DNA from: a virus
Lineage: Duplodnaviria; Heunggongvirae; Uroviricota; Caudoviricetes
DNA: 60,152 nucleotides
Strand: one strand, 5' to 3'
IMG/VR virus record: IMGVR_UViG_3300034355_001008
In this document: positions 11,285 through 59,490 of the stretch, in pieces
How the letters are laid out: every line of letters starts with the position of its first letter
Position numbering within the stretch: position 1 is the first letter of the stretch
Translations under genes and position numbers: made by a program
Notes under the pieces: generated by a model
Databases searched by the model: none
Told to the model about the DNA's origin: nothing
The model's input: the letters and a program-made list of their open reading frames with translations, nothing else

Positions 11285-11304
11285 AATATTTTCCTATAGT
11301 TAAT

Positions 11305-11645: not shown

Positions 11646-11959
11646 ATTCAGTTACTTTCCTGAGAAAGTTTACACAGTTTGCGCTTTAATAATAAAAGTT
11701 CAATAGTATTATCAAGCGTTTTTCTATAATTTAATATTTCTACTTTTTTCTTTAGTGAAAGATTATTAAAGTTTCTTCTTGTTACTGGCCAAATCTCACC
11801 ATTCATCTAGGTTTTCCTAGATTTAGCAGTACAACCAAAAAGAAAACAATTAATGCTAATTCAGAAATTTTAATCGCTATAGCTGGAACTGCCATTAATA
11901 ATAAAAAAAATAATACAACGCCTAATATAAATTTTTCAATTAGTTTCATAATTTAACCT

Positions 11960-13813: not shown

Positions 13814-14174
13814 CGTTATCCAAAAATGCTTTAAATAGATATTTTCTATCTTCTTTTTTAACTAAATTTAATTTAATAGCAATTTGAGTTGCAAACTGCC
13901 ATTTAATAAAGTAATCCGGTTTAGCAGTAATTAAAATATTAAACTCACCAATTCTAAACGCTACCATGTCGTCATCTGAATATGTTACATCAGCTCCGCA
14001 TTTAGAATCAACTGTATGCTCTGCTTCCCACTTTTCAATATTATCGACCAATATCATAATATCGATATCATTATACGGTTCTGTTGGACAAATATATTTA
14101 GAGCCTGTGTATAATACTTCTTTTGCTTCGGCAATTATTTGTTTAATATATTCTGGAAGATCTTCTTGAATCAT
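13788..14174 (-). CDS. Putative minimal nucleotidyltransferase-fold protein
   Basis: TGS...NDIDIMIL resembles the Pol-beta GS/DxD motif. Confidence 0.5.
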   Translation of the reverse strand: MIQEDLPEYIKQIIAEAKEVLYTGSKYICPTEPYNDIDIMILVDNIEKWEAEHTVDSKCGADVTYSDDDMVAFRIGEFNILITAKPDYFIKWQFATQIAIKLNLVKKEDRKYLFKAFLDNDGVKIEHL

Positions 14175-17584: not shown

Positions 17585-17821
17585 TTAGTTAATTAAAATT
17601 GCATTAATTGGCATTTCTTCATCTTCTATATGATGTTCTGAAATAAACTCTCTAGCGCGTTTATCAAAATGACCTGCGCTTGGATTCCAATTAACAACAC
17701 CATAATCATTCCCTTCATCATCAATTGAATAGACAACTTCAGCATCAATTAATTCTGGTTGGTCACGTACTAATTCTTGTAAATTTTCTAAATATTCGCC
17801 TAATTTCATAATGTCTCTCAA
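17585..17821 (-). CDS. Hypothetical protein
   Basis: 78-aa ORF overlapping upstream stop. Confidence 0.6.
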   Translation of the reverse strand: MRDIMKLGEYLENLQELVRDQPELIDAEVVYSIDDEGNDYGVVNWNPSAGHFDKRAREFISEHHIEDEEMPINAILIN

Positions 17822-19080: not shown

Positions 19081-19093
19081 AATATAATTTCTC

Positions 19094-19728
19094 TTAACAA
19101 TTATTTGTATCAATACCTAAATAATTTTGATACCGTGTTTCTTTACCGCTTTCGCTATATTCTTTTTTTACCCAAAACCCAGCATAATCTTCGGTAAATA
19201 TACAATTTCCCTTATCGTCATATTCTTTACGCCACCAAAAACCTCTATCCATAGCTGCATAGAAAATAACATTCCCATATTTATCGCACTCAGTAATTAC
19301 TTCATTCATTTTAACTCCTTAAAAGTTCTACCTTTCGTAAAAAATTTTAATGGTTTTTTAAAGGTAATAACTTCAGTGGTTCCATTTTTAATATAACCAA
19401 TCATTTTAAATTTATCATTTGTTAGAAAATACGTGTGTAAAATATGCTCAGGAAAAGACTTGGTTGTTTCTAATACAGTAATCATAATATCCTCCAATTA
19501 GTATAAGTTATTATACTATACCAGAAATTTAATGTCAAGCATTTTTTATTTAAAATCTGCAGATACAATTAAAGATCTCCGATTATCATATTCAACAACA
19601 GCAATCGTTTTATTATTATCAGATAGATAAGTAACGGTATTCATATATCCGAAATATTTACCTTTCCAACCTCTATCTGTTAATTTTTTTTGCAAATCAA
19701 AATCAGAAAATTTAGTAGATTTTAACAT
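19094..19728 (-). CDS. Three small hypothetical ORFs (19094-19309, 19306-19497, 19546-19728)
   Basis: ORF track; co-oriented and closely packed. Confidence 0.55.
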
Positions 19729-28956: not shown

Positions 28957-30048
28957 TTAATCGCCTCCTTTTAACAAGAATTTGTTAGAAATGCATTTAA
29001 AGTGAATTTGGGGGTTTGAAACGCATTTTAACACAACCCCCTCTCTTTCAACAATAGGATTAACTACAGATTTACCTTCAGCCATAGCCAATAATCCATC
29101 AATAGTTTGATCTCGCAAATTCATATAACCCAAAACAGGAACATGTTCTAATTCTAATTCTTTACACAATTCAATTCTATCGTTAGAATTTAAGTATTCG
29201 CCTTTGTTAATATCATAAATGCTGAAAACCCAAAATCTGTGTTCAGTTGAGCGATAATGATTTCCATTAATTCCAGTTCCGAATAATTCTCCTTGAATAG
29301 CAATATTTCTACCAAGTTTAGCTAATTTATTTCTAAGATCTAAAGAATTTGCCATAGCCCAAAACGAATTACCTTCAGTTTCTTTTAATTCTAAATTTCT
29401 AGAACACACACCAAATTTTTGAAGATAAGCTCCTTGTTCATCAGTAGAATCTTTAGCGTAGACGGTCATAGAAGAACCATCAATTTTTTCTGAAATTTCT
29501 ACTTCGTAATCATCAGAACCCGCCCATTTGTACAAAGATCTTGATAAATTTTGTACACGTTCTTCGTCAGTTTTTGGGATAAAGCTAGGGAAATTTCCTT
29601 TAGCCATGCCAGCTAACTGAGTTGACATTGGTGGTTCATATTTGTGAATGTTTAATAAATCTGAAACATCCATATCTTCCTCAATGATTACAGGAATAGT
29701 TTCTAAACGAATTCCTAACCCAGCAAGTACAGATTCAACACCATCATAAACTACATTAATTGGTAACAATAAACCTTGTGAAATTTGTTTACGCAAGCGA
29801 ACAGTTCTTAATCGTTCACCTTTAATATCATTGTATTCTCGTGGTTCTTTGCCTTCTTTGGTAAGGAATGGAGCAAGCTCAGTTGGGATAAACGAATCGA
29901 TCTCAAAGTAAACTGCTAATTGTCCGACAGAGAACTCTCCTTTTTTAACTACTACTTTCCAGCCACCGATAGTAGCAGTTTCAATTAAATCCGCGCCATC
30001 AATAGGTTCTAATGCATCAATTTTTCTAACAGTTGCTAATTTTCTCAT
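28957..30048 (-). CDS. RNA ligase, DRB0094/Rnl2-like family
   Basis: MRKLATVR start, FPSFIPKTDEERVQN, EKIDGSS, QGELFG, REGVV, FKCISNKFL. Confidence 0.9.
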   Translation of the reverse strand: MRKLATVRKIDALEPIDGADLIETATIGGWKVVVKKGEFSVGQLAVYFEIDSFIPTELAPFLTKEGKEPREYNDIKGERLRTVRLRKQISQGLLLPINVVYDGVESVLAGLGIRLETIPVIIEEDMDVSDLLNIHKYEPPMSTQLAGMAKGNFPSFIPKTDEERVQNLSRSLYKWAGSDDYEVEISEKIDGSSMTVYAKDSTDEQGAYLQKFGVCSRNLELKETEGNSFWAMANSLDLRNKLAKLGRNIAIQGELFGTGINGNHYRSTEHRFWVFSIYDINKGEYLNSNDRIELCKELELEHVPVLGYMNLRDQTIDGLLAMAEGKSVVNPIVEREGVVLKCVSNPQIHFKCISNKFLLKGGD

Positions 30049-30059
30049 AATATAATCTC

Positions 30060-30392
30060 CTAATCCATTCTCGAACGCCAAGTAATATTTAAATCGCTAC
30101 CAAGCATTGTTTTTATTGTTGCAGCAAATGCTTTGGCTGCTGCTTCATGTACTGACATGCTTTGAGTTGGTTGGTTTCCAGGCATCCAGATACTATATCC
30201 GCCACCATATTCGCTACCACCAATACCCATTTTTTTAAGGTATGAAACCAGTGGTCCACGCGCAGGTCTAATTAACACCCACCCAAAACCACAACAATCT
30301 CGCTCACCAACACGAGCATACTGTTCTCGACCAGCTGTCTCTGCTGCCGCAAAAGCAGCAGTAACAGCATTAGCAATTAAATCTTTATCCAT
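30060..30392 (-). CDS. Conserved phage protein
   Basis: CCGFGWVLIRPARG...QSMSVHEAAAKAFA; own early promoter. Confidence 0.65.
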   Translation of the reverse strand: MDKDLIANAVTAAFAAAETAGREQYARVGERDCCGFGWVLIRPARGPLVSYLKKMGIGGSEYGGGYSIWMPGNQPTQSMSVHEAAAKAFAATIKTMLGSDLNITWRSRMD

Positions 30393-43289: not shown

Positions 43290-43298
43290 TTTTCTCTC

Positions 43299-46200
43299 CT
43301 AGTTTACTGAACATTTTGCTGAATAACCTAATAAACCGTCCTGTAACTCACGCTCAATAGCAGGCTTATTTTTTTCTATGTAAAACTCACATTCCGCATA
43401 GGTATCGAACTGCATAATGGTTACTTCTGGAGTTCCGTTCGCTATTTGCGCGGAAGTAAAATACATCATTAATGTTAACACTGCACCCATTTTTATCTCT
43501 CCTAGTTAATTAGTATAACTTATTATACTCGACTGCATGCAGTATGTCAAGCACTTTGTTAAATTTTATTCATTTGGTATCGCAATTAAATGACAATGTT
43601 GCGTTCTAGGTAAATTTTTTTCGCATTCATTAATTAATGTATCGCGTTGATATACTAAATGCCAAAACCCATAAATCATCAACAAAATTAGTAATGCCAA
43701 GGCATATAAAGCATTATTATTTTTCATTCGTCTATCTCAATAATTCTAACTTTGCGGTCTTTTGCCGCCTTTCTTGCTTTGTGTGCATTAATTGTTTCTC
43801 TAGCTCTATTTTCAAACCATGACGAAGCATGACCGTTTTCATTGTCTAAGCCTACCCAAAACAAACCCCACAATTTATATTGCGGAAAATATTCTACAGA
43901 AAGTTCGCCGGAATAAATGTATTCCGGTTTTTCTAAAATTCTATATCTACTCACCTAAGTACGCCCAAAAGTTGTTATGAATAGACATTAAAGCATCGCT
44001 ATTTAAATACATTGTACTTTCTTGATTTCTTGGATCGCTATGTAAACTTACTATTTGATTTGATACAGTTCTAATATCTAGGACATAAAATTTAATCCCA
44101 CCATCAGCAGTTAGTGGTTGTAAAATCATCGATGTTATTTTATCCGCTGCTAATATAATATCAGCGTCCTTGCATGGAATTCGTATTCTATTTTGACTCA
44201 TAGCCTTTTTTCTCCAATAATTCTAGGAATGTTTTTTTCTCGCAGCCGCCTAAACCGTCCATATCCTGACCAACTTGCCAAACGTTTACGTTTTTCCATA
44301 GGGCGATAACTAAGTTAAAATCATTTTGGTCTAATTCATATAATAACTTTTGGGCTTTCTTGATTACTCGGTCAGTTCGATTAAAAGAACCGCTCTTCCA
44401 GTCGCGTGTTTTGACCTTCATAGTCAAATTAATGGCATTAACTTGACACACGCTCAGGGCGATTACAGGACCGAAATCTTGGTAAAGTTCATTGTATATT
44501 CGTTGATGATTCATTTATATCTCCGGTTAATTAAGTATAAGTTATTATACTTTACGCAGTAAAGTTTGTCAAGCACTTTCGCGTAAGTTATTATTCACCA
44601 ACCACCCTCAAAATTTGGTGGAGGGTCAAATTCATTAGTAATGAATTCTCTCATAGTACGGCTTTTAATCATCAGTTTTTCACCATCAGCGTTGTAGGCA
44701 ATCCAGTCTTTACCATATATTATTTTTCGACCTCTTACAGTATCAATCACCCAGTCTAACTCAAGTATTTTCCTTGGGTCACCTAATCCATTTGAAATAA
44801 CACCATCTGGTATTTTATCTTCATCAGGGAGAAATTGCTCTATTTTAATTGCTTTAAATTGACTCATTACTTTATCGCCCTCATTACAATTTTCTTTTTT
44901 AAGTTTGTATATTTGGCATTCCAGCTGTTTAACATAAACATATATTGAATGCGGCACTTTAAAATGCTCTGATAATTTAGTTTCTAAATTTGTGCAGGAT
45001 ATAAAATATGAGGATGCCATTATTTTCTCCAATTTTTATACGCGTCTATACAACTATCAAACTCGACTCCATAGATCTCATATTGAGCCTGACAGAACGA
45101 TTGAATATGAATAGGTAACTTAGTATCCTGTTTTGCAGTTAACTCGATAAACCGAAATGCAAGCGAAATTATCAAACAAAAATAAACAAAGGTTAACGCT
45201 ATATATGCAATTCTCATGTTATTGTATCATGTATAAATTGGTTTCCATATTTTCCGGTTCGTTATTATTTAAACATAAGTAATGCAATGTGTGTAAAGTT
45301 CCAACAATTTTTTGTTACTAAAACTGCGCAGGTTAATTAAATCGCCTAGTTCGCCACAATCTTCTAATTGTATATACAAATCAGAACTTAATATTGCATC
45401 GATAATTAAATCTCTCATTTTCCCCTCCGCTATTTTGGAAACGCTTTCAGGACGGCACTGGGTTTTCACCAGTAACTGTGGTCAGCAGTATGGTATCCCG
45501 ATTAGTCCAGACCATAGGAACCACCCTACTCGCCAAACTATCGTTAAGCTGGAATCGTTTACCAGCAAAGCCGTCCTGAAAGCGTTTCGTTTAATTTAAT
45601 TATGATTCATTATACCTTATCCGCTATAACAAAGCAAGCACTTTTTACTTAATTTTCTCGTAAATGTGATAACAATACACGACCTCGATTTCTGGTTCAT
45701 CATAAATGTATTCAGTGGTAGGCGTTTGTGTACCTATATAATCACCCCATTTATGCCATCTCCAACCTTCATATCTAGGTTGACCAGATTTAGTGATTTT
45801 ATGCAATAACACTACGAATTCGCGCTCTGTGGACGTTAATTCAGGGATGACTTCAAGTAAATTTTCAATTCCATCACAAACACCGTAATACCACGCAGCA
45901 TCATTTGTTAGGAATTCGGGATCTTTAATATATGAGTTAGAACGCTCAAGCGCATATAACTGAAATGAATAATAACTTAGATAAACACCCTCTTGTAATT
46001 CAAGTTCTTGGATAATCGGGTTACTTTTTAACATTTTTCCTCCAAATTTATTCCGGCTCGAATCATTCTTTTTTGAGCCCATGAAAGGATTGCACATTTT
46101 TCCCAATACTGCGCTCCAGCGTCGTCTAACATTTTGTTAAACCTATTGAACGCTATTTTCTTTCCTTTCTTTGTATAGGCTGAAATAAACATACGGATAA

Positions 46201-46967
46201 CATATTCAACATTATCGCCTAACCATTCTTGACTTCTATCGCGTTTATTCATGTTTATTTAACGTGTCCGCAACGTTTCCAATCTGCATAAGTAGAATAA
46301 TCATTAAATACAACATAATCACCAGCATTTGCGTTTACATAATGATTTAATATTTTTCTAACGATACCGTTAGGAAACGCCTGTTTTGCCGCATATCTAG
46401 TGTTAAAATAATTCATTTTTCATCTCTCCGGTTTCAATTAAGTATGATTCATTATACTTTACTGCGTAAAGAATGTCAAGCACTTTCTACTAAAGTTAAA
46501 TCACTTTCCCAAAAAATAAGCAACACCCACTCCAAAAGGATTGTTATCTAATACCAATCCCAATCGTCCGCTTGGGCGTTCAACAATTGACGAGATAGCA
46601 CCGTATGGTAATGTTTCTATTGCCGCTACCACGCCCACATACGTTCCTTTATGTAATCCAGTCAAGGTTACGCTAACTCTATCGCCAATTTTAAACATAA
46701 TCAAACCTCCGCGCTGTTTAACATTTCATACATAAAACGGCAATCAGCAGGACCAAAGCAACCAGTAACATAAGATACATATAGGCTTTGCCAATCGGAA
46801 TTTAACTCGCTTTTGCAGTCTAACATCCCCGCGATATGATAACTAAACGGTTGGTCGTCATTTTCGTAATACGCAATCACCTCGGCGATTAAGGATAAAT
46901 CATTCATTTGTTTCTCCTCTATTAAGTATGATTCATTATACCTTATCCGCTCGAACAAAGCAAGCAC
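43299..46967 (-). CDS. Run of small hypothetical early ORFs
   Basis: 43299-43490, 43724-43954, 43947-44201, 44188-44514, 44595-45032, 45020-45217, 45269-45469, 45645-46106, 46028-46252, 46501-46704, 46701-46905; interspersed early promoters. Confidence 0.55.
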
Positions 46968-46978
46968 TTTATTAAATT

Positions 46979-47048
46979 TATAAATACTTTTTTTCTTCCA
47001 TAAAAAAAGCTAGTCGCGGACTCTGACATCCCACTAGCACTAATCATT
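46979..47048 (+). promoter_or_regulatory. Late promoter plus conserved structured leader, copy D
   Basis: TATAAATA; GCTAGT-CGC-GGA-loop-TCC-C-ACTAGC-ACTAATCATT. Confidence 0.8.
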
Positions 47049-47065
47049 CTTTCTAGGAGTTACCT

Positions 47066-47866
47066 ATGACCAGCACAAGTATATATTCAATCTACAAATT
47101 CACAAATAAAATAAATTCAAAATCGTATATCGGAAAAACAATCGATATTCCTACGCGATATTCTAAACATAAAAAAATTGCTGAATCTGGTTTAGGTTTT
47201 GCTATTCATAATGCAATAAGAAAATATGGTATCGATAATTTTACGTTTGAAATTATTTTTCAGGCAAACAATACCTTGATAACTGAAAAAACATTTACTG
47301 ATATTTTTGAGAATTATTTTATAAAAGAATGTCGTTCACATGTTACCGAGCATGGTTATAACTTAACATGGGGTGGTGAAGGTTTTGATAAAGAGTCACA
47401 AAAATTCTACGCTGATAAACGAACTGCAGAGGGCAAGAATCCATTTTCAGGCGGAATGATACAATCTAAAAAACAACAAGAATTAGTTATGTTAGGCGAA
47501 CATAATTTTCAGGGCAGTAAAATGAATGAATATATGTTATTAAATAATATTCATCCATCACAGAATTCTGAGAATTGTGAACGTATTTCTATTAGAGAAA
47601 AACAAAAGATTGCTAATGGAACACACGTATTTCAGTCAGAAAAATTTAAAAAGAATCAAAGTAAAATACAACACGAATTAGTCGCGTCTGGTAAACACCA
47701 TTTGTTAAGTGGCGAAATACAATCTAAAAGCAATAAAACTAGATTAGAAAAAGGAGAACACCCATCGCAATTTAGGGTTTGTTGTTTATATTGTCAAAAA
47801 GAAACTGACTTACCAAATCATAAAAGATGGCACGGTTCAAACTGCAAAAAAGCAGGCGGGAGTTAA
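47066..47866 (+). CDS. GIY-YIG homing endonuclease
   Basis: SIYKFTNKINSKSYIGKT, HNAIRKYG.DNF.FEII, ENYFI, GYNLTWGGEG; G.H.FQ-like repeats. Confidence 0.88.
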   Translation: MTSTSIYSIYKFTNKINSKSYIGKTIDIPTRYSKHKKIAESGLGFAIHNAIRKYGIDNFTFEIIFQANNTLITEKTFTDIFENYFIKECRSHVTEHGYNLTWGGEGFDKESQKFYADKRTAEGKNPFSGGMIQSKKQQELVMLGEHNFQGSKMNEYMLLNNIHPSQNSENCERISIREKQKIANGTHVFQSEKFKKNQSKIQHELVASGKHHLLSGEIQSKSNKTRLEKGEHPSQFRVCCLYCQKETDLPNHKRWHGSNCKKAGGS

Positions 47867-47872
47867 CCCGCC
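47855..47872 (-). terminator. Intrinsic terminator
   Basis: GGCGGG/CCCGCC stem followed by TGCTTTTTT on minus strand. Confidence 0.65.
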
Positions 47873-47880
47873 CACCAATC

Positions 47881-48858
47881 TTATTTTAACATAACAGTTC
47901 GTGCCATTGGCTTCCAATCAGATTTATCCATTAGAAATAACGCGGCTAATTTTTCCATAGATCGTAGGCTAATTTCTTTCATTTTATCTAAATGTTCTTC
48001 CATAAATGTTAACAATTCTTGTTCTTCAGATTCAGTTAAACCTTTAGAACGTAACATACCATCACGAACAGTTAACTTAATTTTTGCCATTACTTCACGT
48101 TTGGTTTTAATTTTTAAATCTAACACCAATGAACGCGATTCTAATGCTGATAAATGAGCTGAATTTTTGTTATTACCAGCGGCTAATTCTGAGAAGTTTA
48201 AATTGGTTAGGAAAATAACATTTCCTTGGTAATCGAAATAACGAGGAATTTCTTCGCCGTCTTGATCGGTAAATTGTTTTTCTGAACCCCATGATACCAT
48301 ACGAGTGTCTTTTAATTCTAAAGCCGCTTTTAGAATATTTAATGCAGTTTCATCAGCGAAAATTGAATCAACGTCGTCTAATACAACAGTTTGTCCAGCC
48401 GCGCGATTTTCCCACAACAAACGGAACAAATGGGTAGCTTTAATGTAACCGCGATGAAACACATAACCATAATCGCCGCTGTTAATTTCAACTAGGATTC
48501 TATTCACTTCATACGATTTACCCAAACCTGGAGCGCCAGCAACGATTAAGGAGTTAACTTTATTTTCTGCTACTGCGCCAACCAATTTATCTAAAGTAAC
48601 ATAAGTCTCGCGGATACGTTTATCTAATTCGCTATCAGTTTCAGCAGGTTTAGCAGGAGCGGTCGCTACGCCAGTGATTTCTAAGTCAGCAGAGAATTTG
48701 AACACGCCACGACCAACGCTATTTGACATGTTGATAATATGGTTTGGCCATTTAGCACCAGTGGTTTGGCAAACTTCCTGAGCTTGTTTACGAGTAATGG
48801 TACCAGTTTCAGCGATTGAAGGAAAAGCAGTTACAGCAGCAGTTTCGAAATTTAACAT
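47881..48858 (-). CDS. P-loop (AAA-like) ATPase
   Basis: GAPGLGKS Walker A, VVLDDVD Walker B, FLTN, LESRS. Confidence 0.85.
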   Translation of the reverse strand: MLNFETAAVTAFPSIAETGTITRKQAQEVCQTTGAKWPNHIINMSNSVGRGVFKFSADLEITGVATAPAKPAETDSELDKRIRETYVTLDKLVGAVAENKVNSLIVAGAPGLGKSYEVNRILVEINSGDYGYVFHRGYIKATHLFRLLWENRAAGQTVVLDDVDSIFADETALNILKAALELKDTRMVSWGSEKQFTDQDGEEIPRYFDYQGNVIFLTNLNFSELAAGNNKNSAHLSALESRSLVLDLKIKTKREVMAKIKLTVRDGMLRSKGLTESEEQELLTFMEEHLDKMKEISLRSMEKLAALFLMDKSDWKPMARTVMLK

Positions 48859-48938
48859 TTTTTATATTCTCCGAGTAATTAGTATGATTCATTATAACTT
48901 ATTGATCCGAACAAAGCAAGCACTTTTTTATCGGAGAT

Positions 48939-49067
48939 TTACATATTTTTGTACCAGCGAATAGATTGGTACACGTCTTCAACGTCTAAGTCAAATTCTT
49001 TAGCGATTTTGTCTAAAGTCCAACCGCTTAGGAACAATTCATACATATCTTGTTGTAATTCTTTCAT
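48939..49067 (-). CDS. 42-aa HTH-like protein (paralogue 1)
   Basis: Manual: MKELQQDMYELFLSGWTLDKIAKEFDLDVEDVYQSIRWYKNM. Confidence 0.65.
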   Translation of the reverse strand: MKELQQDMYELFLSGWTLDKIAKEFDLDVEDVYQSIRWYKNM

Positions 49068-49161
49068 TTTTCTCTCCAGTAGGCGTTTCGCCGTTTTTTA
49101 TTAAGTATGAGTTATTATAACCGATTGTTCCGAGGAAAGCAAGCACTTTTTTATCGGAGAT

Positions 49162-49293
49162 TTACTTATTCATCAATTCACGGATTGATTCATACACTTC
49201 AGTTACACTTAATCCGAAATAAACCGCGATTTTGTCTAAAGTCCAACCGCTTAGGAACAATTCATACATATCTTGTTGTAATTTTTTCTTCAT
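49162..49293 (-). CDS. 43-aa HTH-like protein (paralogue 2)
   Basis: MKKKLQQDMYELFLSGWTLDKIAVYFGLSVTEVYESIRELMNK; 58 nt identical to paralogue 1. Confidence 0.65.
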   Translation of the reverse strand: MKKKLQQDMYELFLSGWTLDKIAVYFGLSVTEVYESIRELMNK

Positions 49294-49360
49294 TTCATCT
49301 CTCCGTTTCATTAAGTATGATTCATTATACCTTATTGTTCCGAACAAAGCAAGCACTTTA

Positions 49361-50685
49361 TTATGCTAACACAACACTTTCATCAATCATATCTACGATA
49401 GATAGGTTCGCGCCCACCCACATATCAATATCAGCGTCAATGGTTTTGTTATAACCACCAATGTATTTGAATTCATGGTTAACATTAACAGTGGCATAAT
49501 ATGGATCGCAAGGCACATTAGCCACGAACTGGATTAAGCCCATTGCTTCGGCTTTGGCGATTAGGTTTTCAGCTTTCATTTCGTTCCCCTTTATTAAGTA
49601 TGATTCATTATACCGCATTGTTCCGAGGAAAGCAAGCACTTTTTTACCAAGGCAAAGACCAGCTGGTATCACCTACCACATAAAAACTACTTGGATCGTA
49701 CATATTTGATTCCGACATTTCATTACCTACAGCATCACGACCATAGGCAACCTGATAAGCACCCATTGAGTCGTCGTATTTGTCCTCTACGCGATCGATA
49801 ACAACCATTGGTCCAATGGTAGACTCACCGATTGAACCGATGCTTTGGTCATCGATTACAAACTGAGTTTTGGTAACAAAAGTGAGTTTGAAGCCAGCAT
49901 TGATAAAACGTTTGGCATCAGATGCTTTGCGGTAGACTTTGTTGATGTCTACTGAGTTAACCACAGGATATACACGAGCAAGCGCCAGCTCCTCTGGGGT
50001 TGCGATTGCCGCGAAAGCAGCAGAAGGAATGAAAGTATAGATAGTTTGAGTTTGGAATTTAGACATTTTTTTCTCTCCGGTTTTTATTAAGTATGAGTTA
50101 TTATAATCGATTCGTGGGAATTAAGCAAGCACTTTTTTATTTTTATTTCCCACTAATTTTTGAATTGCTCTGAGGTTTTTGAGCAGGTAGGCGTTTCTTT
50201 GGATTTTAGCTTGGTTAGACATTTTTCTCTCCTTTCATTAAGTATGATTCATTATACTAAATCGGGAGAGAAAACGCAAGCACTTTCGGAATTTATTTTT
50301 AAATTTATTTCGGAGGATACAACGGGGAATTTATTCAGCGGTTTGCGTGATGACTCGGTTAACCTGTTTAGAGGACACCGTTTCGTATACGATACCACCT
50401 GTGCCTTTTAACATCAACATAACTTCATTGCCTTCCTTCCACCGCTCCAGGATCAAACGCGGAGCGGTTTTGCCGGCAAGTACAACTCTGTTACCAACGC
50501 GCAATTCATTTACATCAATCATGTTTATCTCCTTTATCATCAGGGTGTTTTGGCCAACCACGACCACGTTCTTCTTTCATACGGACCATTTGAGCCACTG
50601 TATCAGGGTGGTGCAGTAATTTTTCAAACTCAACCATGGGATCGTACATTTCACCAGTAACACGGTCTTGAACTAAGTTAATCAT
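49361..50685 (-). CDS. Small early ORFs (49361-49580, 49644-50066, 50331-50522, 50515-50685)
   Basis: Cassette promoters and GGAG RBS; track starts that extend into promoters were trimmed. Confidence 0.55.
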
Positions 50686-50759
50686 TTCTCTCTCCTTATT
50701 AAGTATGATTCATTATAACCTATAGGAGAGAGATTGTCAAGCATTTTCCGAAATATATT

Positions 50760-51434
50760 TTATGCGAATACAACAAAGCCTGATTTATCCTTTTTCGCAG
50801 GTCCTTTGGCTTTCAAACCTACCACAACTCCGCGAGGATCGTTAATGCGGATATCAGTATCGTCCCCAGACACCACTGGAAGACCAAGGTAAGTCTCTGG
50901 CAACTTATCGAATACAACTGCCACGTTCAAACCATTACGGATCGCTGCGGACACGTCACGATCGTTTGATTCCTTTCTTGAGAAAGTTAGGTGATAGTTC
51001 TCGGGCACAGTACGACCAGCGATAGCAGTATAATCATAGAATTGAACATCAGGAAACATTTCAAATAGGTTACGATAGTCGCCTATGCGAATTTTCTCCC
51101 AGGCGATATCGCTGGTACCATTAAGCCGTACAAGTAATTTTAAACCATTTTTAATGGCTGACTTCTTAGCAGATTTTATCTCTTTAGCTAACTGAGCCAT
51201 GAAGTTGGTTCTATCCTGAAAGAATAGTTTGGTACGGTTGATTCGCGCTTGTTGAGTGGTCGAGTAAGCACCCATGCCAGCTTTGTTAAGGCATGCCGCA
51301 GCACAGCCAGCAGATGCTTTGGGGCAGGTTTGAAAGCCTGAGATTAGGCTTGGGGCAAGGTGCAGGATATAGGTTTTGTAACCATATTTTTCACCTTTCA
51401 TGGTTTTGGTATTAGCAGTAGATAATAAAGCCAT
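50760..51434 (-). CDS. GP88-family phage protein
   Basis: CPKASAGCAAACL, RLNGTSD, FYDYT, YHLTFS, GLKAKG. Confidence 0.75.
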   Translation of the reverse strand: MALLSTANTKTMKGEKYGYKTYILHLAPSLISGFQTCPKASAGCAAACLNKAGMGAYSTTQQARINRTKLFFQDRTNFMAQLAKEIKSAKKSAIKNGLKLLVRLNGTSDIAWEKIRIGDYRNLFEMFPDVQFYDYTAIAGRTVPENYHLTFSRKESNDRDVSAAIRNGLNVAVVFDKLPETYLGLPVVSGDDTDIRINDPRGVVVGLKAKGPAKKDKSGFVVFA

Positions 51435-51502
51435 TTTCGTCTCTCCGATTTATTAAGTATGAGTTATTATAATTGATTTGTTATAGGTTGTCAAGCACTT
51501 TT

Positions 51503-52714
51503 TTATTCACCAGACCAAATCACCGCTGTAATACCGATAACAAAAAATCCGAGTATAGTTGCGGCGATTGTAATTTGAGCTTTATTGCTCAAAGGTTCAC
51601 CGACATTTGCTTGAGCGGTTTGGTGGCTAGAAACATGGGCTGGAATATGACTAGCAACGGTTGCATGAGCGATACCAGCAGAACCTTTTGCTTCAGCCAC
51701 GCCAGCGATTACAGTTAACATCAAAGCAATCATTAATTTTTTCATTTTCATCTCCGGTTTCAATTAAGTATGATTCATTATACTTTATTGTTCCGAAAGT
51801 GTCAAGCACTTTTTAATGAATATTCAGCAATTTTATCATCAATTTGTTTGTACGCCTGGAGTAAAATGTATTCAATTTCTTCAATCATTTCTTGTTGGTT
51901 TGGTTCATCCCATATCACAGGCAAACAATCAACGCAACCCAGAACAGTTGAATTCATACGTTTCATACGATCGATTAAATAATCTCTTTGCATATTATTC
52001 CCCTTCTACCACAACGCCATAGTCGCCTTCGTCTTCAGTTTTCCATGAGGTACCATTATATCTCACGAATTTATCACCACACTCTGCGGCGAACTCACAT
52101 GCCTCATACGCAGTTTCAAATACAAATTCTTGATTTTTCATTTTTATCTCCGGTTTCAATTAAGTATGAGTTATTATAATTGATTGGTGCGAATTAATCA
52201 AGCACTTTTTTTAACAACAGGAACTGTCATCCAACCCATAGGTTTTCCGCTGAACGTTTCGCCTACAAATATTTGTCCTACTCTTAAACCGTCTGAATCT
52301 AGCAATTCCCAGCAAGGACCAGCTTTGCGTAATCTTAGAACCAATTCGTGGTTTTCGCCAGCAGCCATCCATTTGTCTAGATTTGTAAATTGTTTTAATT
52401 TATACATTTTCATCTCTCCGGTTTGTTTCTTTTTTATTAAGTATGATTCATTATACTTTATTGTTCCGAAAGTGTCAAGCACTTTCTAATTGTTTTTCTA
52501 ATTTTTTTCTAGCAGCTTTGGTGATAGTTGAATACCACACAGGTCTTTCATAACGACCATCGTTGCTACGATACACAGAAATCAAGTAGAAATCCTCTGT
52601 TACGAAACGAGCAGTTTCACCGTAGGATAGGTTCAAGCCTAATGGCCATTTATCGTTTAAGTCTTCAGCATCAAGAGCCGCATGTAAAGTTTCAAACCAA
52701 TTTTGTTTAGACAT
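51503..52714 (-). CDS. Small early ORFs (51503-51745, 51802-51993, 52198-52408, 52475-52714)
   Basis: Cassette-driven; three end in the TGA of the next promoter. Confidence 0.55.
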
Positions 52715-52793
52715 TTTCTTCTCTCCTTATTAAGTATGATTCATTATACCGTATCGGGAGAGAGAAAGCAAGCACTTTATCAGAAAAAAAGAT

Positions 52794-52826
52794 AAAAAAA
52801 AACCCCAACCATTTCTAGTTGGGGTT
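52794..52826 (-). terminator. Intrinsic terminator of tRNA/hairpin transcript
   Basis: AACCCCAAC/GTTGGGGTT 9-bp stem followed by long T-run. Confidence 0.85.
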
Positions 52827-52829
52827 CAG

Positions 52830-52982
52830 AATACCTTCCGGAGAGAAGTGTATTAGGGTGGTAGGTAACCAAGGGAGAGAGTCTCAGTTACCTACCAATT
52901 GTCCGGAGAGACAATGTTAAAGGAGTAAGCGATTAAACCGGAGAGAGGTGATTTAATCGCTTACAAGACACCGGAGAGCGTC
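52830..52982 (-). ncRNA. Five-hairpin RNA with UCUC(U)CC(G) loops
   Basis: Hairpins 52830-54, 52859-97, 52898-915, 52925-64, 52967-82; G-U pairs favour minus strand. Confidence 0.75.
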
Positions 52983-52992
52983 AATTAATTGT

Positions 52993-53067
52993 TGGACTCA
53001 ATGACCGGATTTGAACCGACACCTCAAGGTTTTGCAGACCTGTGCACTACCATTATACGACATTGAG
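52993..53067 (-). tRNA. tRNA-Cys(GCA)
   Basis: Loop CTGCAAA, GGTTCAAATCC, U73, CCA; several G-U pairs. Confidence 0.82.
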
Positions 53068-53075
53068 TTAATATT

Positions 53076-53159
53076 TGGTGGAGATCCTAGGATTCGAACC
53101 TAGTGCCCAGAGGGCAAGGATTTACAGTCCTCTGCAGTCGCCAATGCCGCTCGACCTCC
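53076..53159 (-). tRNA. tRNA-Tyr(GTA)
   Basis: Loop CTGTAAA, long variable arm, GGTTCGAATCC, ACCA. Confidence 0.92.
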
Positions 53160-53177
53160 AAATTTTTAATATAACTT

Positions 53178-53210
53178 ATTATAATCTATTGAACATAATA
53201 AGTCAAGCAC
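53178..53210 (-). promoter_or_regulatory. Early promoter of tRNA operon
   Basis: GTGCTTGACT-N17-TATAAT. Confidence 0.85.
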
Positions 53211-53216
53211 TAGATT

Positions 53217-53330
53217 AGCACTTTGTTAAAATATATATTCCGCTATCTCTTATACAGCCGTTTCGAACCGACTTTGTACAGGTGTAGCCTATAGGGTGCA
53301 CGCCCAGAATATATATTTTAACAAAGTGCT
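53217..53330. repeat. Perfect 24-bp inverted repeat around a 66-bp core
   Basis: AGCACTTTGTTAAAATATATATTC (53217-53240) / GAATATATATTTTAACAAAGTGCT (53307-53330). Confidence 0.9.
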
Positions 53331-53358
53331 CACATTAAAGCAAGCACTTTTATATAGG

Positions 53359-53754
53359 TTAGAACGAAATAGAACGCGCGATGCTTAATCGATAATCGCA
53401 ACCATCATCACCTTCTTCATATTCTTCCTGAAGATCTTCTACTTCCTCACCGATACGTACACGCTCGGCTGCTAAGCCTAATTCCGTTGCTTTGTCGAAT
53501 ACACCGTTGAATAAATCAACAACGGGATAACCATCATACCATTTAACGTGACTAGCATAGAAGAAAAACTCACCAGTTTCATCATCCCAGATATTTCGGA
53601 CACTATCATTAACACTAGCATCAACCAAATACTGTAAATTATCAAGCGCCATGGCGCTAAAATTAGCAACTTCAGCATCGTAGTAGGTTTTCAACTCAAC
53701 CAATTTTTCTTTGTCGCCATAAGCAGTAATTGCAACATCAGATCTGTAACCCAT
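53359..53754 (-). CDS. Conserved acidic phage protein
   Basis: MGYRSDV...VKWYDGY...RIGEE.ED. Confidence 0.7.
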   Translation of the reverse strand: MGYRSDVAITAYGDKEKLVELKTYYDAEVANFSAMALDNLQYLVDASVNDSVRNIWDDETGEFFFYASHVKWYDGYPVVDLFNGVFDKATELGLAAERVRIGEEVEDLQEEYEEGDDGCDYRLSIARSISF

Positions 53755-53819
53755 TTTTATCTCTCCAGTAATTTAGTATGATTCATTATAACTTATTGTT
53801 AATTATTTGTCAAGCACTT

Positions 53820-55364
53820 TTAATTCTTTTTGTAATAAAGTTTTTAACCAAGAACGAACGCTGGATCCATCTTCTTTAGTGTATTTTGAGTTATTAAAAT
53901 GGAAATCATTTTTTCTGCGATATAATGCTTTTTTCATTTCTATCTCCGGTTTATTAAGTATGATTCATTATAACTTATTAACAACATTTAGTCAAGCACT
54001 TTATTTTTGTGTTATCAAACATTGTACAATTTCATTTACATTAAAACCGTTCATGCTTGCTTCTAGGATAACAGCGAATTTGGCGCCACGCGCATTTTTA
54101 GCATTAACATAGGAGGTGAATAACGGCTCACCACGGAATTGAATCATCACTTCGTATTTGTTCATCATGCACCTAACCACCAACCAGCAAACACCACGCT
54201 CATACCCAAACCCAACACAACAATTTGTAACCATTCAACCAATTTCATTTCATCTCTCCGTTTCAGTCACTTCATTTAATTATGATTCATTATAACTTAA
54301 TACAACTCAATTGTCAAACACTTTTTCCATTAATTTTAACATATCTTGATATTCATTTTCAATTTCCGGATCGTCGCGGAAAGTATATCCATGCTCTGCG
54401 GTATAACGCAAAGCAGAGAGGATTAGGTCTAACTCTTCACCGGTGAATTCCATAATCTTACCCCAATTGTTCAGAGAGCCAAGCGAGGATTTGTGCTTCA
54501 GTTGGAGCGTTTTCTTCACCCTCAACAAAATCCATAAAATCATTTTCGTACCAACGCTCAAAGCTACCGGACATTAACATGCTTAACACTTTTACAGCTA
54601 CTTCTTCATTCATTTTCATCTCTCCTTATTAATTATGATTCATTATACCTTAACTGTTAGAACAAAGCAAGCACTTTATTTAGCTGTGTTAAGAATAATA
54701 TCTAACAACCATACCATAGGAAGTCCTAAGCAAAACCCTGCTACCATAGACTCAAACAACACACCAACACATTCTTTATAAGTCATCACCGTCTCCTAAT
54801 AAGAAAAACTTGCCATACCAAAAAATACCATAGCCACAAAGGGTGACGCGCATAGGACGGTGTAAGTAACCAACTCCGCGAATAATTCTAAATCTTTCAT
54901 TTCTCTCTCCGTTTTATTAAGTATAACCTATTATACTCGAGTGGCTGACCCAAGTCAAGCACTTCGTTGCATTATTTTCAAATAATACTAAAGCAACCAT
55001 TCCAGCTGGTATAATTGCCTGATATCGCTAACATCACCCACTGATCGTACTCGCTCACTTGACGCAATACACAAATTGTTCCTTTTGGTAAATTATAAAC
55101 ATTCATTTTTCATCTCCGTTTGGGAGGGGGATTTACTCCCCCTTATTAAGTATGATTCATTATACCTTAGTGCTTACATTAAAGCAAGCACTTTTTTAAA
55201 TTTATTCTTCTAATTTGATTACAAGTTAAAGTGCGAACTAAATCTAAAAGTATTTCGTATTCTTCGGAAACTCCTTTAGAATCATTAACTTGCTCAATAA
55301 TTGCTAACGCGTCTTCAAGTTTAGCAATTGCAGATTTAATACGGTTTTCGTCATAGTTTGTCAT
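53820..55364 (-). CDS. Small early ORFs (including 54001-54168 and 55179-55364)
   Basis: Each behind a cassette promoter/RBS. Confidence 0.5.
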
Positions 55365-55531
55365 TTTTCTCTCCGTTTCATTAAGTATGATTCATTATAC
55401 CTTAGTCGGAACATTAAAGCAAGCACTTTTAGAAATAAATTTAAATTATTTTTTCGAACAAAGTGCTTGACTTCTTCGGAAAAAAAGAGTAAGCTGGTAT
55501 CAGTTTTATTACTTTGAAATGTTACAGTTTG

Positions 55532-55676
55532 TATGTTATTGATTTACAAAGAGTTAAATGCTAACAATTTTTAAGTGGTTATCGCGCCACAAATTGCTAA
55601 GTTATTGATTTATAAAGAGTTTGTAAGTCATTGATTTATGAGGTTTGGAGAGAGTTACCTACAAATCAATGACTTA
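55532..55676. promoter_or_regulatory. Cluster of four IHF-consensus-like sites
   Basis: WATCAANNNNTTR matches at 55598, 55624, 55664 (inverted); near match at 55532. Confidence 0.65.
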
Positions 55677-55904
55677 GACTCTATTTAAATATAGCGATTA
55701 CAAATAGCGATTTAATTGCTGTAATCAGCCATCTCGTCGTCGGTGATATATTCAATTTCAACATGGGATAAGGCTTTGTTGGCTAAATCCTCAGCGACAG
55801 GCTCGATATAACTCCAGGCGATAGAATTTTCCCATATCATCTCACCGTCACAATAGAGCTGAACCCAATTATCGGACTCCAGAGAGTTGGTAACGAATAC
55901 ATAT

Positions 55905-56123
55905 TTAAGCATTAGACGCTCCAGAATTATCACCTTGGAAATACAATGAAGAGATGTTAAATTTAGGTGCATCGCCACCGCCAGTATTAGCAGACTTCAT
56001 GCGACCAGAGCAAGTCACGCGAACTTTGACTTTTTTAGGGGGAATTACATTAATTTTACCACCATTCATTAGGAACAATTCAGTGGCAGCTTGGATTTGC
56101 GCGTTTTTTTCAGATTTAGTCAT
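55905..56123 (-). CDS. Hypothetical early protein
   Basis: CCGGAG RBS, cassette promoter. Confidence 0.6.
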   Translation of the reverse strand: MTKSEKNAQIQAATELFLMNGGKINVIPPKKVKVRVTCSGRMKSANTGGGDAPKFNISSLYFQGDNSGASNA

Positions 56124-56380
56124 TTTATATCTCCGGTTTCATTCACTTCGTTTAATTATGATTCATTATACCTTAACTGTTATAACAAAGCAAGCACTTT
56201 TATATTGTATTACCGAAAAATAATTTATTTTCCATAGAGGAAAAATAGATAGTTTCTCCGTTCCGTTCGTCAACATCTTTTAAATCTAAATATTCCCAGC
56301 AACCATCGACTACAACTTCAACCACAGCATCAGAAGGTAGGCGTTGTAGATAAACCATTAAATCACCAACAGTAACCATT

Positions 56381-56833
56381 TTATTCTCCTTCTAACTCAT
56401 CGTCATAATCGTCGTACTCATCGTCCTCTGAGTCTTCGTATGCGGTATCAATTACAACGTCACCGAAATCGAACAAACCAGCATGGGCGATAATGTTAAA
56501 CGCATTATCAAAGGTATGAACCGCACCGGAATCGATATTTTCTAAATCAGTAGGCGCGATATCTTTAACAGCGATGATACCAATCGTTCCTGAGTCAACG
56601 GGATAATAATTTTCCTTGTTATCATTATAAGTTCCGTCGCCATATGCAGTAGAGGCAAGGAATACTCTACGACCATCGGTAAGGCTTAAATCACCCTCAA
56701 CCATATCATTACCTGGAGCGGCGAACATAAGGTCGCAGAGCTCACCCCATTCAGCATGCATTACATAGCAGAGGTCACCGATGTAATATTCGCCAGCAGG
56801 AAATTGGGCGGTGTATTCAGTATTTCTAGACAT
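56381..56833 (-). CDS. Conserved phage protein
   Basis: GEYYIGDLCYV, TAYGDG, VDSGTIG; acidic tail. Confidence 0.72.
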   Translation of the reverse strand: MSRNTEYTAQFPAGEYYIGDLCYVMHAEWGELCDLMFAAPGNDMVEGDLSLTDGRRVFLASTAYGDGTYNDNKENYYPVDSGTIGIIAVKDIAPTDLENIDSGAVHTFDNAFNIIAHAGLFDFGDVVIDTAYEDSEDDEYDDYDDELEGE

Positions 56834-56910
56834 TTTTCTCTCCGTTTCATTCACTTCGTTTTAAGTATGATTCATTATACCTTATCTGTTATAGATAAGC
56901 AAGCACTTTT

Positions 56911-57977
56911 TTAATCAGCACGAGAATAATATTCAGGCGAATAACCGTTTGACGCGCTGTTATTTTTGGCGTTGTTTAGATTAGTGATTAACGACGCCAA
57001 GGTTTTTGGGTTACGATTAATTTTCTTTCTACCTTTCTCATGTCCCCATGAGGCGCCACAATCCAGTGTGTATTTGAAGATTCGGTTTAACTCGGGCAAC
57101 GTTCCCTCAAACAACGATACGCGACCACGACGTTCACATTGGACTCTATATGTTTTCATTTTTTCTTCTCCGGTTTATTAAGTATAGGTTATTATAATTG
57201 GTTTGTTATAGGTTGTCAAGCACTTTTTTAAATAAAACCTAGACTAGAAATTAGATCACCATTAGACTTATAAGCAAAAAACACATTAACAGGCTGTTTA
57301 TCGTTACCAAAGTTTACAAAATACGCAGCAGCATATTTATCCGGATCACAGTTAATTAAGTTTATAGACTCAATTTCGTCGCACAGCCATCCTTCGGCTT
57401 TATAAATAAATGTTTCAATATCAGATTTGGTTAAATTTTTAACATCAATCATTTTTTTCTCCGGTTTCAATTAAGTATGATTCATTATACCTTAACTGTT
57501 ATCAGATGTCAATCACTTTTTCTGTAATTTCTGATAAACTTTTCAACCACTGACCGCGTTTCATGTTAAACATATTCGCGGGGACAAGCATGGTTCTATT
57601 GCCAGTTTTAGTGTCCATCCAACATCCTTCCTGACGAATAGGATCCGGACGGTTCCAATAAGCATAAATCGCTCCGTCACGGTCCGCAGCAGCATACACG
57701 CAACCTAAGCTAGAAATTACCGCTAACTCCATGCCACATACTTCAACACTTCTAAATACACTCATAAATCCCCCTATAGGACGCGTTGTGAAAGGATTTT
57801 CAATTGTCTTTGGTTTAAGTTTAAGTCCTCTAGCAGGATCCGTATGTCCGACTGAGTATAACCCAAAGCAAAGGCATGATTTTCGTAACCCAAGGACTCA
57901 GCACTGCGAGCCAAACCAATTTCCACTACACTGTCAGCATATTGGCCAGCAAGCACTTCAGCATTTAATTTAGTCAT
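56911..57977 (-). CDS. Small early ORFs (56911-57159, 57228-57451, 57502-57765, 57774-57977)
   Basis: Cassette promoters and RBS. Confidence 0.55.
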
Positions 57978-58057
57978 TTCTCTCTCCGTTTCATTAAGTA
58001 TGATTCATTATACCGTATCAGGAGAGAGAAAGCAAGCACTTTTATCGCAGATTGCTA

Positions 58058-58636
58058 TCAAAAACCTAATATTTTTTCTAAATCGGCAACCATACCTTCA
58101 ATGATTTTTGCTTCAACAAATCCATCGTGGTCGCGCATCGCATCAGCACGGTTTTTGTAGAATTCAATAAAGTCTATAAGGTTTGTTGGTTTTCCTTCTG
58201 AGGCGTTCACAGTTTCGTCCAGGTCTTGTAGGAACTCACGTAGGTCCAGGAATCCTTTTCTTTGTGAAAGGAGATACCAGTGCTGTTCTGATTCGACGTA
58301 GAGATAGTTGTATTCTTCCCACTGTCCGTTTAATCTGAACCAGATCATATCCTCAAATTTACGGAATGAGGTATCAGGCTCGCCACGGTCACGACCATAA
58401 TACACACACGTGTCTTTTTCTGGGGTATCAAAGGCATGGTGGTCATTAATTGGATCAACGCGAATACCCAAGGACGACAGGTCACCAAGGCGAATTAACC
58501 GTTTAACCTCGGCAGGCGTTTTGTAATATGTTTTAAGTATGGCGCCATTGTGGTCCAGGTACCCATCCCAGTGGCAGTAGATTTGTTCAACAGAGCCATC
58601 AGTTTTTTGTATCGCGATTGTAGATCTTGTACCCAT
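58058..58636 (-). CDS. Conserved phage protein (MGTRS...IYCHWDGY family)
   Basis: MGTRSTIA...IYCHWDGY...G..L...Y...YYGRDRGE...EEYNYLY. Confidence 0.75.
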   Translation of the reverse strand: MGTRSTIAIQKTDGSVEQIYCHWDGYLDHNGAILKTYYKTPAEVKRLIRLGDLSSLGIRVDPINDHHAFDTPEKDTCVYYGRDRGEPDTSFRKFEDMIWFRLNGQWEEYNYLYVESEQHWYLLSQRKGFLDLREFLQDLDETVNASEGKPTNLIDFIEFYKNRADAMRDHDGFVEAKIIEGMVADLEKILGF

Positions 58637-58708
58637 TTTATTTCTCCGGTTTTCAATTAAGTATGATTCATTATAATCGATTGCTAGCATTAAAGCAAGC
58701 ACTTTTTG

Positions 58709-59238
58709 TTAATATTTTATAACAATTTCGCCTAATTCAGAATCGAATTCATTAGCAGTTAACTGGATTAGCACTTCTCCGCCCAATTCAAACTCACAAG
58801 CACCATATATTTCAATTTGTTTGATTGCTTCGCGCAACGCCACTAGCAATTGTTCGGCAGGTAAGCTCACATTTTCCAAAGTCACTTCAGTCATTTTCTT
58901 CTCTCCTTATTAAGTATGATTCATTATAACGTATCTGTTATAGGAAAGCAAGCACTTTTTTAATACATTTCAAATTCCGCGTCTGTTTTTACGAAATTTA
59001 TGAAATCTTCTAAGCCTAATTTTTCTAATCCTAGAGCGACCATTTTAGCCGAGAAGTACGAATATGTCGCCGATTTATACCATCCTAACATATTTTTATG
59101 AGAAACTTCAATTCCGTTCTTATCAACAATTATAACGTATTCTTCCGTGTAAGCGATAAATGGCGCGATTTCACCCCAGCCTTCTGCGCCCATGAAACTA
59201 TAATCATATTTTTGTTCAAATTTAATTTCGTTAGACAT
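58709..59238 (-). CDS. Two small early ORFs (58709-58894, 58960-59238)
   Basis: Cassette promoters and RBS. Confidence 0.6.
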
Positions 59239-59490
59239 TTTTCTCTCTCCTTATTAAGTATGATTCATTATACCTTAACCAATAGACGTTGTCAATCACT
59301 TTTTTCGCGAAAATAAATTTATTTTTTTATTATAAAGTGCTTGCTTTGTTCGGACGATTCTATTATAATAGGTTATACTTTGAAAAACTGAAGGCTGATA
59401 AGGCTGGTCCCTCTATATAACTGGCGAGATCGTCTAGACAAAAGATGTCTAATTAAGGAAAAAAATGTCCGAAATTCGGATTTTTTCGAA

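Follow-up and report, generated by a model that had tools for sequence, protein, structure and literature searches.

In Alphaproteobacteria, the cuckoo RNAs (RSs0680a-d, SmelC397/C14 and others) consist of 2-4 adjacent hairpins in which each loop reads CCUCCUCCC, while the stems are highly variable (PMC4615179). RNAIII of Staphylococcus aureus and small RNAs (sRNAs) of the RsaE/RoxS type have several C/U-rich loops which pair with the Shine-Dalgarno sequences of several targets (PMC9266662). The sRNAs of virulent phages are nearly unexplored, and the classic band C and D RNAs of T4 (rnaC and rnaD) have been without a known function for fifty years, since the 1970s (PMC4933390). A task that might suit such an RNA is carried out in T4 by a protein, the early-made nuclease RegB, which inactivates early messages at GGAG within the Shine-Dalgarno sequence (PMC3014915). 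Here we describe an RNA from an uncultured freshwater phage related to T4 (IMG/VR record IMGVR_UViG_3300034355_001008; we call the whole 60,152-nucleotide (nt) stretch of DNA that was analysed the window). At positions 52794-53210, on the minus strand, a transfer RNA (tRNA) operon ends in an array of five hairpins whose tips share one word, CUCUCC, and this word is matched by a tag at the ribosome sites of about 30 early genes. The sequence alone names both the regulator and its targets, which makes the hypothesis directly testable. We are highly confident that this is a real, selected RNA with its loops as functional sites, and we consider it probable that it pairs with the early ribosome sites, whichever sign the effect has. 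The reading towards which we lean is that of a multivalent trans-acting anti-ribosome-site sRNA that represses early-gene translation by this pairing.

A preliminary description of the locus had proposed that a promoter on the minus strand drives tRNA-Tyr, tRNA-Cys, five hairpins and a terminator, and all of these parts are present as placed. The operon starts with an early-type sigma-70 promoter (53178..53206, TTGACT-17-TATAAT), which matches the consensus at 11 of 12 positions and has ahead of it the GTGC common to the early cassettes. A tRNA call for tRNA-Tyr (gta, 53076..53159) is followed by tRNA-Cys (gca, 52993..53067) with an encoded CCA, and the array begins about 10 nt further on, after an A/U-rich linker. 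Hairpin 1 (52967..52982) has a 6 base pair (bp) stem and the apex CUCUCCGG, hairpin 2 (52925..52964) a 15 bp stem and the 10-nt loop ACCUCUCUCC, and hairpin 3 (52898..52915) a 7 bp stem and again the apex CUCUCCGG. Hairpin 4 (52859..52897) has a 15 bp stem and the 9-nt loop ACUCUCUCC, while hairpin 5 (52830..52854) has a 10 bp stem with one bulge and the apex CUCUCCGG with CUU before it. The operon is closed by an intrinsic terminator (52794..52827, the terminator call itself covering 52800-52827) with a 12 bp stem, a GAAA loop and a T run. CUCUCC is found at all five tips, and as CUCUCCGG at four of them. The word CTCTCCGG occurs in four copies within 141 nt of the minus strand, where chance predicts 0.29 copies for the entire 60-kilobase (kb) window, and the fifth hairpin carries CUCUCUCCC. 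Base-pair probabilities leave 9-10 nt open in hairpins 2 and 4, and in hairpins 1, 3 and 5 the CUCC is fully open over a weak U-G and a C-G pair.

The strand of the RNA is indicated by its folding as well as by its signals. The trailer of about 190-200 nt folds into the five hairpins and the terminator with a minimum free energy (MFE) of -77.2 kcal/mol (z = -10.3 versus shuffles), whereas the plus-strand fold is weaker (-68.5 kcal/mol, z = -5.8), and we found no promoter-like site on the plus strand at the operon. The MFE structure holds nine G-U pairs, which become A-C mismatches if read on the opposite strand. The minus-strand G-U pairs had been pointed out in the preliminary description, and the strand they favour agrees with the promoter, the terminator and, in 12 of the 13 arrays now known, with the folding energies. 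That description had also named expression of the plus strand only, which would make the RNA a CsrB-like GGA sponge, as a finding that would speak against it, and the computed strand evidence points to the minus strand. CsrB and RsmZ resemble the array in their many hairpins, in their one repeated loop word and in a copy number that varies between relatives. They are unlike it in that their GGA loops carry the word that is bound on messages too, whereas here GGA loops would occur only on the non-transcribed strand. We rejected a membership in the CsrB/RsmZ type, as promoter, terminator, G-U pairs and folding energy put the RNA on the CUCUCC strand.

Relatives of the array were found by way of the exact 3' half of tRNA-Cys and, as a second anchor, by way of homologues of the immediately upstream 131-residue gene. 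Twelve more distinct versions were recovered from lake-metagenome contigs, which gives 13 arrays in total. In all versions the array is the last element of a tRNA operon with an early-type promoter and directly follows the final tRNA. The tRNA content of the operon is variable (Tyr-Cys; Tyr-Cys-Met-Ser-Phe-Pro; Tyr-Glu-Arg-Cys-Met; Pro-Cys-Met-Arg; Tyr-Cys-Pro), one further version is interrupted by homing-endonuclease genes, and the number of hairpins before the terminator ranges from 4 to 7. The homing-endonuclease-like genes of this one relative (L266:4964-6370 and L267, with a weak NUMOD3 match on a nearby similar gene) lie on the opposite strand, within the tRNA cluster and just past the array, and recall segB inside the T4 tRNA cluster. 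In the same relative the final motif hairpin also serves as the terminator. An extra 6-bp hairpin is present in the arrays of L252, L256, L261, L268 and L270; its loop CUCCUUUA is the complement of a canonical AAAGGAG, resembles the 3' tail of 16S ribosomal RNA (rRNA), and is mutated to CUUCUUUA in L271/L272 and varied to CUCUCCUUU in L254.

The comparison shows that the loops stay while the stems change, as the preliminary description had proposed from the five hairpins of the window. Every CUCUCC copy in the 13 arrays, 57 of 57, is found at a hairpin apex. On the roughly 190 kb of sense strand of these loci the word occurs 76 times: 57 times in the arrays, 10 times in promoter spacers, 3 times at the tips of solo hairpins and 6 times elsewhere. 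Hairpin 1 has an invariant apex in all 13 arrays above a lineage-dependent stem, of which there are three unrelated versions. The loop of hairpin 2 has decayed or the hairpin has been replaced in some lineages, in L261 by an unrelated 20-bp hairpin, and hairpin 4 has given way to a new long motif-bearing hairpin in L261, L268 and the L257 group. Hairpin 3 is the most conserved and the only one with a stem that is invariant in all arrays, and the order of the hairpins varies among lineages. With hairpins gained, lost and shuffled in this way, RNAalifold on the full alignment was uninformative and a per-hairpin analysis was used in its place. Among the homologues of hairpin 4, pairing holds in 97.7% of cells compared with 25-61% for slid partners, and three pairs are changed on both sides. 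A compensatory path from U-A over a G/A mismatch to G-C can be followed in L257, L263 and L264. Single stem changes yield G-U pairs, which would be A-C on the opposite strand, and the terminator stem also shows compensating changes among relatives. The sense strand folds better than the antisense strand in the 12 arrays mentioned above, and each array has 6-11 G-U pairs. The fixed apical word amid this turnover of stems implies that the loops are the working parts of the RNA.

The constant position between the final tRNA and the terminator might raise the question whether the hairpins are elements for the processing or stability of the tRNA precursor, acting in 3' protection or as RNase entry or pause sites with no function in trans. 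The T4 tRNA cluster likewise ends in two stable RNAs. These RNAs, species 1 and 2 or rnaC and rnaD, have the same 3'-terminal place in a T4-type tRNA cluster and are the closest positional analogues of the array. We rejected them as homologues: their folds are unrelated, with no CU-rich loop that recurs, and the 3' part of rnaC resembles the T-arm and acceptor of a tRNA. A role in processing would leave unexplained the invariant 6-mer at 57 of 57 apexes, the match of this 6-mer to the complement of the early tag of the phage itself, and the existence of a solo copy away from any tRNA. For 3' protection, the terminator hairpin alone would be enough. We therefore regard an explanation by processing elements as improbable.

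The main alternative to a pairing RNA is a protein sponge or assembly platform, in which a phage or host RNA-binding protein would bind the CUCUCC apexes, be it S1, a protein of KH type or one recognising the 16S tail. That the apexes complement ribosome sites would then be incidental, or would mimic that tail. CsrB and RsmZ are indeed built in this way, with one loop motif repeated on variable stems, and hairpins 1, 3 and 5 share one predicted cap, CU-CUCC-GG. The CUCCUUUA loop of some lineages and AUCACCUC in hairpin 2 are also similar to the 16S 3' tail. However, known sponges bear the motif of the target message itself and not its complement, and it is the complement that is found on the sense strand here; the GGA-type loops occur only on the strand that has no promoter and folds worse. 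The cap geometry is not conserved either, with loops of 4-12 nt across the arrays and single-G deletions that alter the cap yet keep the word. No RNA-binding domain was found in the neighbouring genes, and the neighbouring small genes have no Pfam domains except GP88. In sum we think a sponge unlikely.

With respect to architecture, the cuckoo family is the closest described relative of the array, and the match is one of architecture only. Both are made of adjacent hairpin modules with one pyrimidine-rich, anti-Shine-Dalgarno-like loop word, both show compensatory stem changes, and both vary in hairpin number (2-4 in the cuckoo RNAs versus 4-7 here). The loop words differ, CUCUCC here against CCUCCUCCC, and no array loop reads CCUCCUCCC. 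Cuckoo RNAs are stand-alone genes of bacterial chromosomes and plasmids with no known private target tag, whereas the array is the trailer of a tRNA operon in a phage of virulent type. In the trailer, all Rfam families stayed below their gathering scores. The suhB/mmgR model gave 15.1 bits against a threshold of 41, and the Betaproteobacteria toxic small RNA (RF02278) gave 25.6 bits against a threshold of 50 over 52795-52846, which is mostly terminator. Such weak matches to families of sRNAs with anti-Shine-Dalgarno loops are carried mainly by the terminator. The array is outside every catalogued family, yet would work like a known kind.

The presumed targets of the array are early genes of the same window. 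About 40 copies of one promoter with the common core GTGCTTGA lie on the minus strand of the window. Each copy reads aaaaGTGCTTG(A/C), a 17-nt spacer and TATAAT, and is followed by a common leader starting gaatcatacttaat. Between about 43 and 59 kb nearly every small gene has its own promoter copy and then a ribosome site A(C/A)CGGAGAGA. This early hyperplastic region (43290..59260, minus strand), our presumed target set, contains 28 promoter-leader-ribosome-site cassettes with the A(C/A)CGGAGAGA-type tag. Hyperplastic regions with the same layout of promoter/stem-loop cassettes have been described from T4-type phages (PMC2839356, PMC4122927). In the 28 promoter-proximal cassettes the tag includes GGAGA in 27, CGGAGA in 18, GGAGAG in 16-17 and CCGGAGA in 10. 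The commonest 7-mer at these ribosome sites is GGAGAGA (16) and the top 6-mers are CGGAGA (18), GGAGAG (16) and GAGAGA (16). These words complement UCUCUCC and UCUCCG, each of which is found in four of the five apexes. The preliminary description had claimed that the loops complement the early ribosome-binding site, which holds with a core that can now be refined to (U)CUCUCC opposite GGAGAG(A).

The tag is characteristic of the early region. In a comparison that rests on crude gene calls over the whole window, CGGAGA stands before 15 of 34 early-region genes and 3 of 92 other genes, CCGGAGA before 10 and none, and GGAGAG before 12 and 3, respectively. GGAGAG dominates the early ribosome sites in every relative as well, for example with 15 of 17 in L263 and 17 of 19 in L264. 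Across the relatives the invariant complementary core is 6-7 nt long, (U)CUCUCC with GGAGAG(A), and the G/GG extension is variable on both sides. Within the tag, the bases next to GGAG are unable to pair with the CCUCC core of 16S rRNA, so these bases are not explained by ribosome binding.

An interaction check against the phage leaders, which the preliminary description had called for, sets the early genes apart from the rest. The median accessibility-corrected interaction energy, which includes the cost of opening both partners, is -7.4 kcal/mol for early genes and -1.2 kcal/mol for other genes (Mann-Whitney p = 3e-9). An energy of -6 or lower with the ribosome site covered is predicted for 20 of the 34 early genes versus 4 of the 92 others. 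When bare hybrid energies are compared at the early sites, the apexes reach -12 to -21 kcal/mol and the 16S tail -6.6 to -9.3 kcal/mol, while at non-early sites the apexes have no advantage over the 16S tail. Hairpin 3 is additionally complementary, with wobble pairs, to bases past the tag (CCGGAGAGAUGAA) and is, of all hairpins, predicted to pair best with ribosome sites of the CCGGAGAGAUGAA type. Examples of likely targets, all on the minus strand, are the ribosome sites CCGGAGAG of the early genes 52198-52407 (site at 52414..52421), 49644-50066 (50073..50080) and 46255-46416 (46424..46431). The first of these contains the full 8-nt complement of the apex and has the best predicted interaction of all, at -12.6 kcal/mol.

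Any anti-Shine-Dalgarno loop can pair with GGAG sites, and the CUCCUUUA loops of some lineages match the canonical AAAGGAG. This leads to the possibility that host messages are the main targets, with the array covering host GGAG(AG) ribosome sites to bring about host shut-off. But the best matches are the early leaders of the phage itself, which would be hit first, and the 3' AG(A) extension is phage-specific and unnecessary for pairing with 16S rRNA. We consider host messages as the main targets very unlikely.

Like trans-acting anti-Shine-Dalgarno sRNAs as a class, the array presents exposed pyrimidine loops that complement the ribosome sites found in a distinct set of targets. RNAIII, RsaE and RoxS differ from it in being bacterial regulators with varied targets, UCCC-type loops, no private tag and no tRNA linkage. 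The closest functional precedent from a phage is the c4 antisense RNA of P1 and P7 (RF01695), a phage RNA whose exposed loops pair at a phage ribosome-site region and block translation. The c4 RNA is matured by tRNA-type processing. It is directed with two specific loops against one operon (icd-ant) of a temperate phage, whereas here at least five identical loops face a tag on about 30 genes, the two RNAs have no similarity in sequence, and the C4 covariance model (RF01695) was not among the Rfam matches to the trailer up to E = 10. PAK_P3 sRNA2, considered as a regulator of many ribosome sites, was rejected as a parallel since the paper describes a tRNA T-loop-like stretch. The preliminary description knew of no phage system like this one, and our literature searches likewise turned up no published phage system of this build.

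We infer that the RNA accumulates, is released by tRNA processing, pairs in vivo and represses its targets, in the following way. The trailer of the tRNA-Tyr/tRNA-Cys operon would be made from the early promoter along with the tRNAs and persist as a stable, structured sRNA. It would probably be released when the final tRNA is cut to give its mature 3' end, since the CCA is encoded and followed by the A/U-rich linker, and it should be stable because it is almost wholly helical and has the terminator at its end. The five tips showing (U)CUCUCC(G)(G) would then pair with the private tag (C)(C)GGAGAG(A) on most of the early one-gene cassettes, with 6-9 or more bp compared with the 4-5 pairs between the same sites and the 16S rRNA tail. 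With its longer pairing, the accumulating RNA would outcompete 30S subunits, and would do so at early messages only. Early-gene translation would be shut down or limited, and the middle and late genes, which are without the tag, would be spared. The preliminary description had proposed an anti-Shine-Dalgarno sRNA, and strand, compensation, tag specificity, interaction energies (p = 3e-9) and position support this as the best available reading.

In such a scheme the RNA would be the counterpart of the T4 RegB nuclease. The logical target would be the same, although RegB is a protein nuclease aided by S1 and the array a pairing RNA. We suggest as a tentative extension, possible but short of probable, that the array is a self-contained timer made of RNA, in which a T4-type virulent phage tags its early regulon with GGAG-AG(A) and a by-product of tRNA maturation out-reads the ribosome and replaces RegB. 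If true, a phage would be able to time its early programme by RNA alone. This would also explain the uniform leaders of the shuffled early cassettes (PeSL-type units), and would provide synthetic biology with a ribosome-site tag and its anti-tag as a compact, orthogonal pair.

A close rival, which accepts the pairing, is a positive action at the same sites. The RNA might protect the early messages, for instance from host RNases or a RegB-like nuclease that cuts at GGAG, or might hold them in reserve. The complementarity evidence is common to protection and repression, and an early-type promoter suits a helper as well as a repressor. Yet occupancy of the Shine-Dalgarno sequence blocks initiation in nearly all cases known for sRNAs, and tblastn found no RegB homologue in the 60-kb window, beyond which the genome extends. 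A protective role therefore appears improbable to us.

Several observations weigh against repression by pairing. Hairpins 1, 3 and 5 must partly open their stems to pair, a cost that the interaction energies include. Some array hairpins are without the motif and still structurally conserved, and hairpin 2 has lost its motif in some lineages. In the L257, L263 and L264 lineages the G/GG loop extension does not follow how often C/CC stands before GGAG, and loops and tags are both conserved in every relative found, with the same GGAGAG tag, so that there is no co-variation between them to read. The sign of the regulation is a guess. That an early promoter should drive a repressor of early genes is plausible by analogy, as RegB itself is an early-promoter-driven inactivator of early messages. 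For expression, four sequencing runs were examined as contigs, from which RNA ends, strand and level cannot be read and in which uncovered parts are uninformative. The lake metatranscriptome run X23 is the only RNA run with the array and contains 78% of its sampled words. A 190-nt contig of this run covers 52843-53033, that is hairpins 1-4, part of hairpin 5 and part of tRNA-Cys. This contig is compatible with expression in a weak sense: its depth is 2.7, it holds no strand information and it could originate from DNA.

The loop word is also found outside the array. A solo hairpin (55616..55682, minus strand, z = -8.7) downstream of an early gene has a 12-nt loop UAACUCUCUCCA that contains CUCUCUCC, and the same hairpin is found in L268, one of the relatives. 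This hairpin may act as another anti-tag element. Moreover, (U)CUCUCC is found inside the -35/-10 spacer of four early promoters on the minus strand (58021-58026, 52757-52762, 50725-50730 and 50265-50270), in each case some 45 nt upstream of the cassette's own GGAGAG ribosome site, and there are ten such spacers across the relatives. A folding energy of -16.5 kcal/mol (z = -1.8) was obtained for the cassette at 52775. In read-through transcripts the spacer word could fold back and mask the ribosome site, so that such genes would be translated only from their own promoter. Translation only from a gene's own promoter is known for some T4 genes.

We also searched phage sequences beyond the lake contigs. 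The cultured-phage database contains no similar DNA except for an 81-nt tRNA match. When IMG/VR was scanned for patterns of two or three spaced CTCTCCGG words, the matches were largely repeats in coding sequence, collagen-like arrays among them, and did not include this array; the exact tRNA-Cys 23-mer is not in IMG/VR. The nearest IMG/VR fragments, G001-G003, have promoters, transfer-messenger RNA (tmRNA) and tRNA-Ser/Arg in common with the window and end short of the array locus. In the Methylophilales phage Melnitz no such array follows the two early-region tRNAs inspected (tRNA-Arg and tRNA-Leu), and none was found by a motif scan of its first 100 kb. A generic scan for hairpin arrays with a common loop 6-mer was too noisy to pick out other motif classes. 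The array nevertheless offers a search image for similar phage RNAs: a tRNA-operon trailer with several hairpins and one common loop word.

Two other segments with early-type signals may be of interest. At 45540-45641 (minus strand) a long conserved leader comes after an early promoter, and no open reading frame (ORF) lies close by. G002, G003, L252 and L253 have this leader too, which may be structured or may represent a further non-coding RNA. At 53222-53347 (minus strand), a promoter-like cassette without an ORF separates the 131-residue gene from the tRNA promoter. A segment of about 100 nt in this cassette contains the T-loop-like GGUUCGAAAC and is almost unchanged in most relatives whose upstream region was read. 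The segment upstream of the tRNA promoter folds no better than shuffles (z = -0.8) and received no tRNA call; it may represent some other small RNA or a tRNA that has decayed.

More than 20 metagenome runs from lake water contain DNA near-identical to that of the phage. Its large proteins are about 37-40% identical to those of the T4-like phage Melnitz and of Pelagibacter phage HTVC008M. The window encodes a DNA ligase (14171-15472), a kinase-RNA-ligase fusion (17818-19113) and, in addition, a second RNA ligase (28957-30081), all on the minus strand; with two RNA ligases, the kinase-ligase fusion and the DNA ligase, this amounts to a T4-like RNA repair set. Together with the variable tRNA cluster it suggests pressure from host anticodon nucleases. 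The window has four tRNAs and a tmRNA (11300-11686, minus strand) of the betaproteobacterial, two-piece or permuted type, with the tag AANDANYGDYALAA in relatives, and Melnitz has a tmRNA too. The type of the tmRNA hints at a betaproteobacterial, perhaps methylotrophic, freshwater host. On the plus strand, at 8701-10716, lies the gene of a 671-residue protein that is homologous to proteins of Melnitz and HTVC008M annotated as adenylate/guanylate cyclases, and the Melnitz homologue adjoins curli-type genes.

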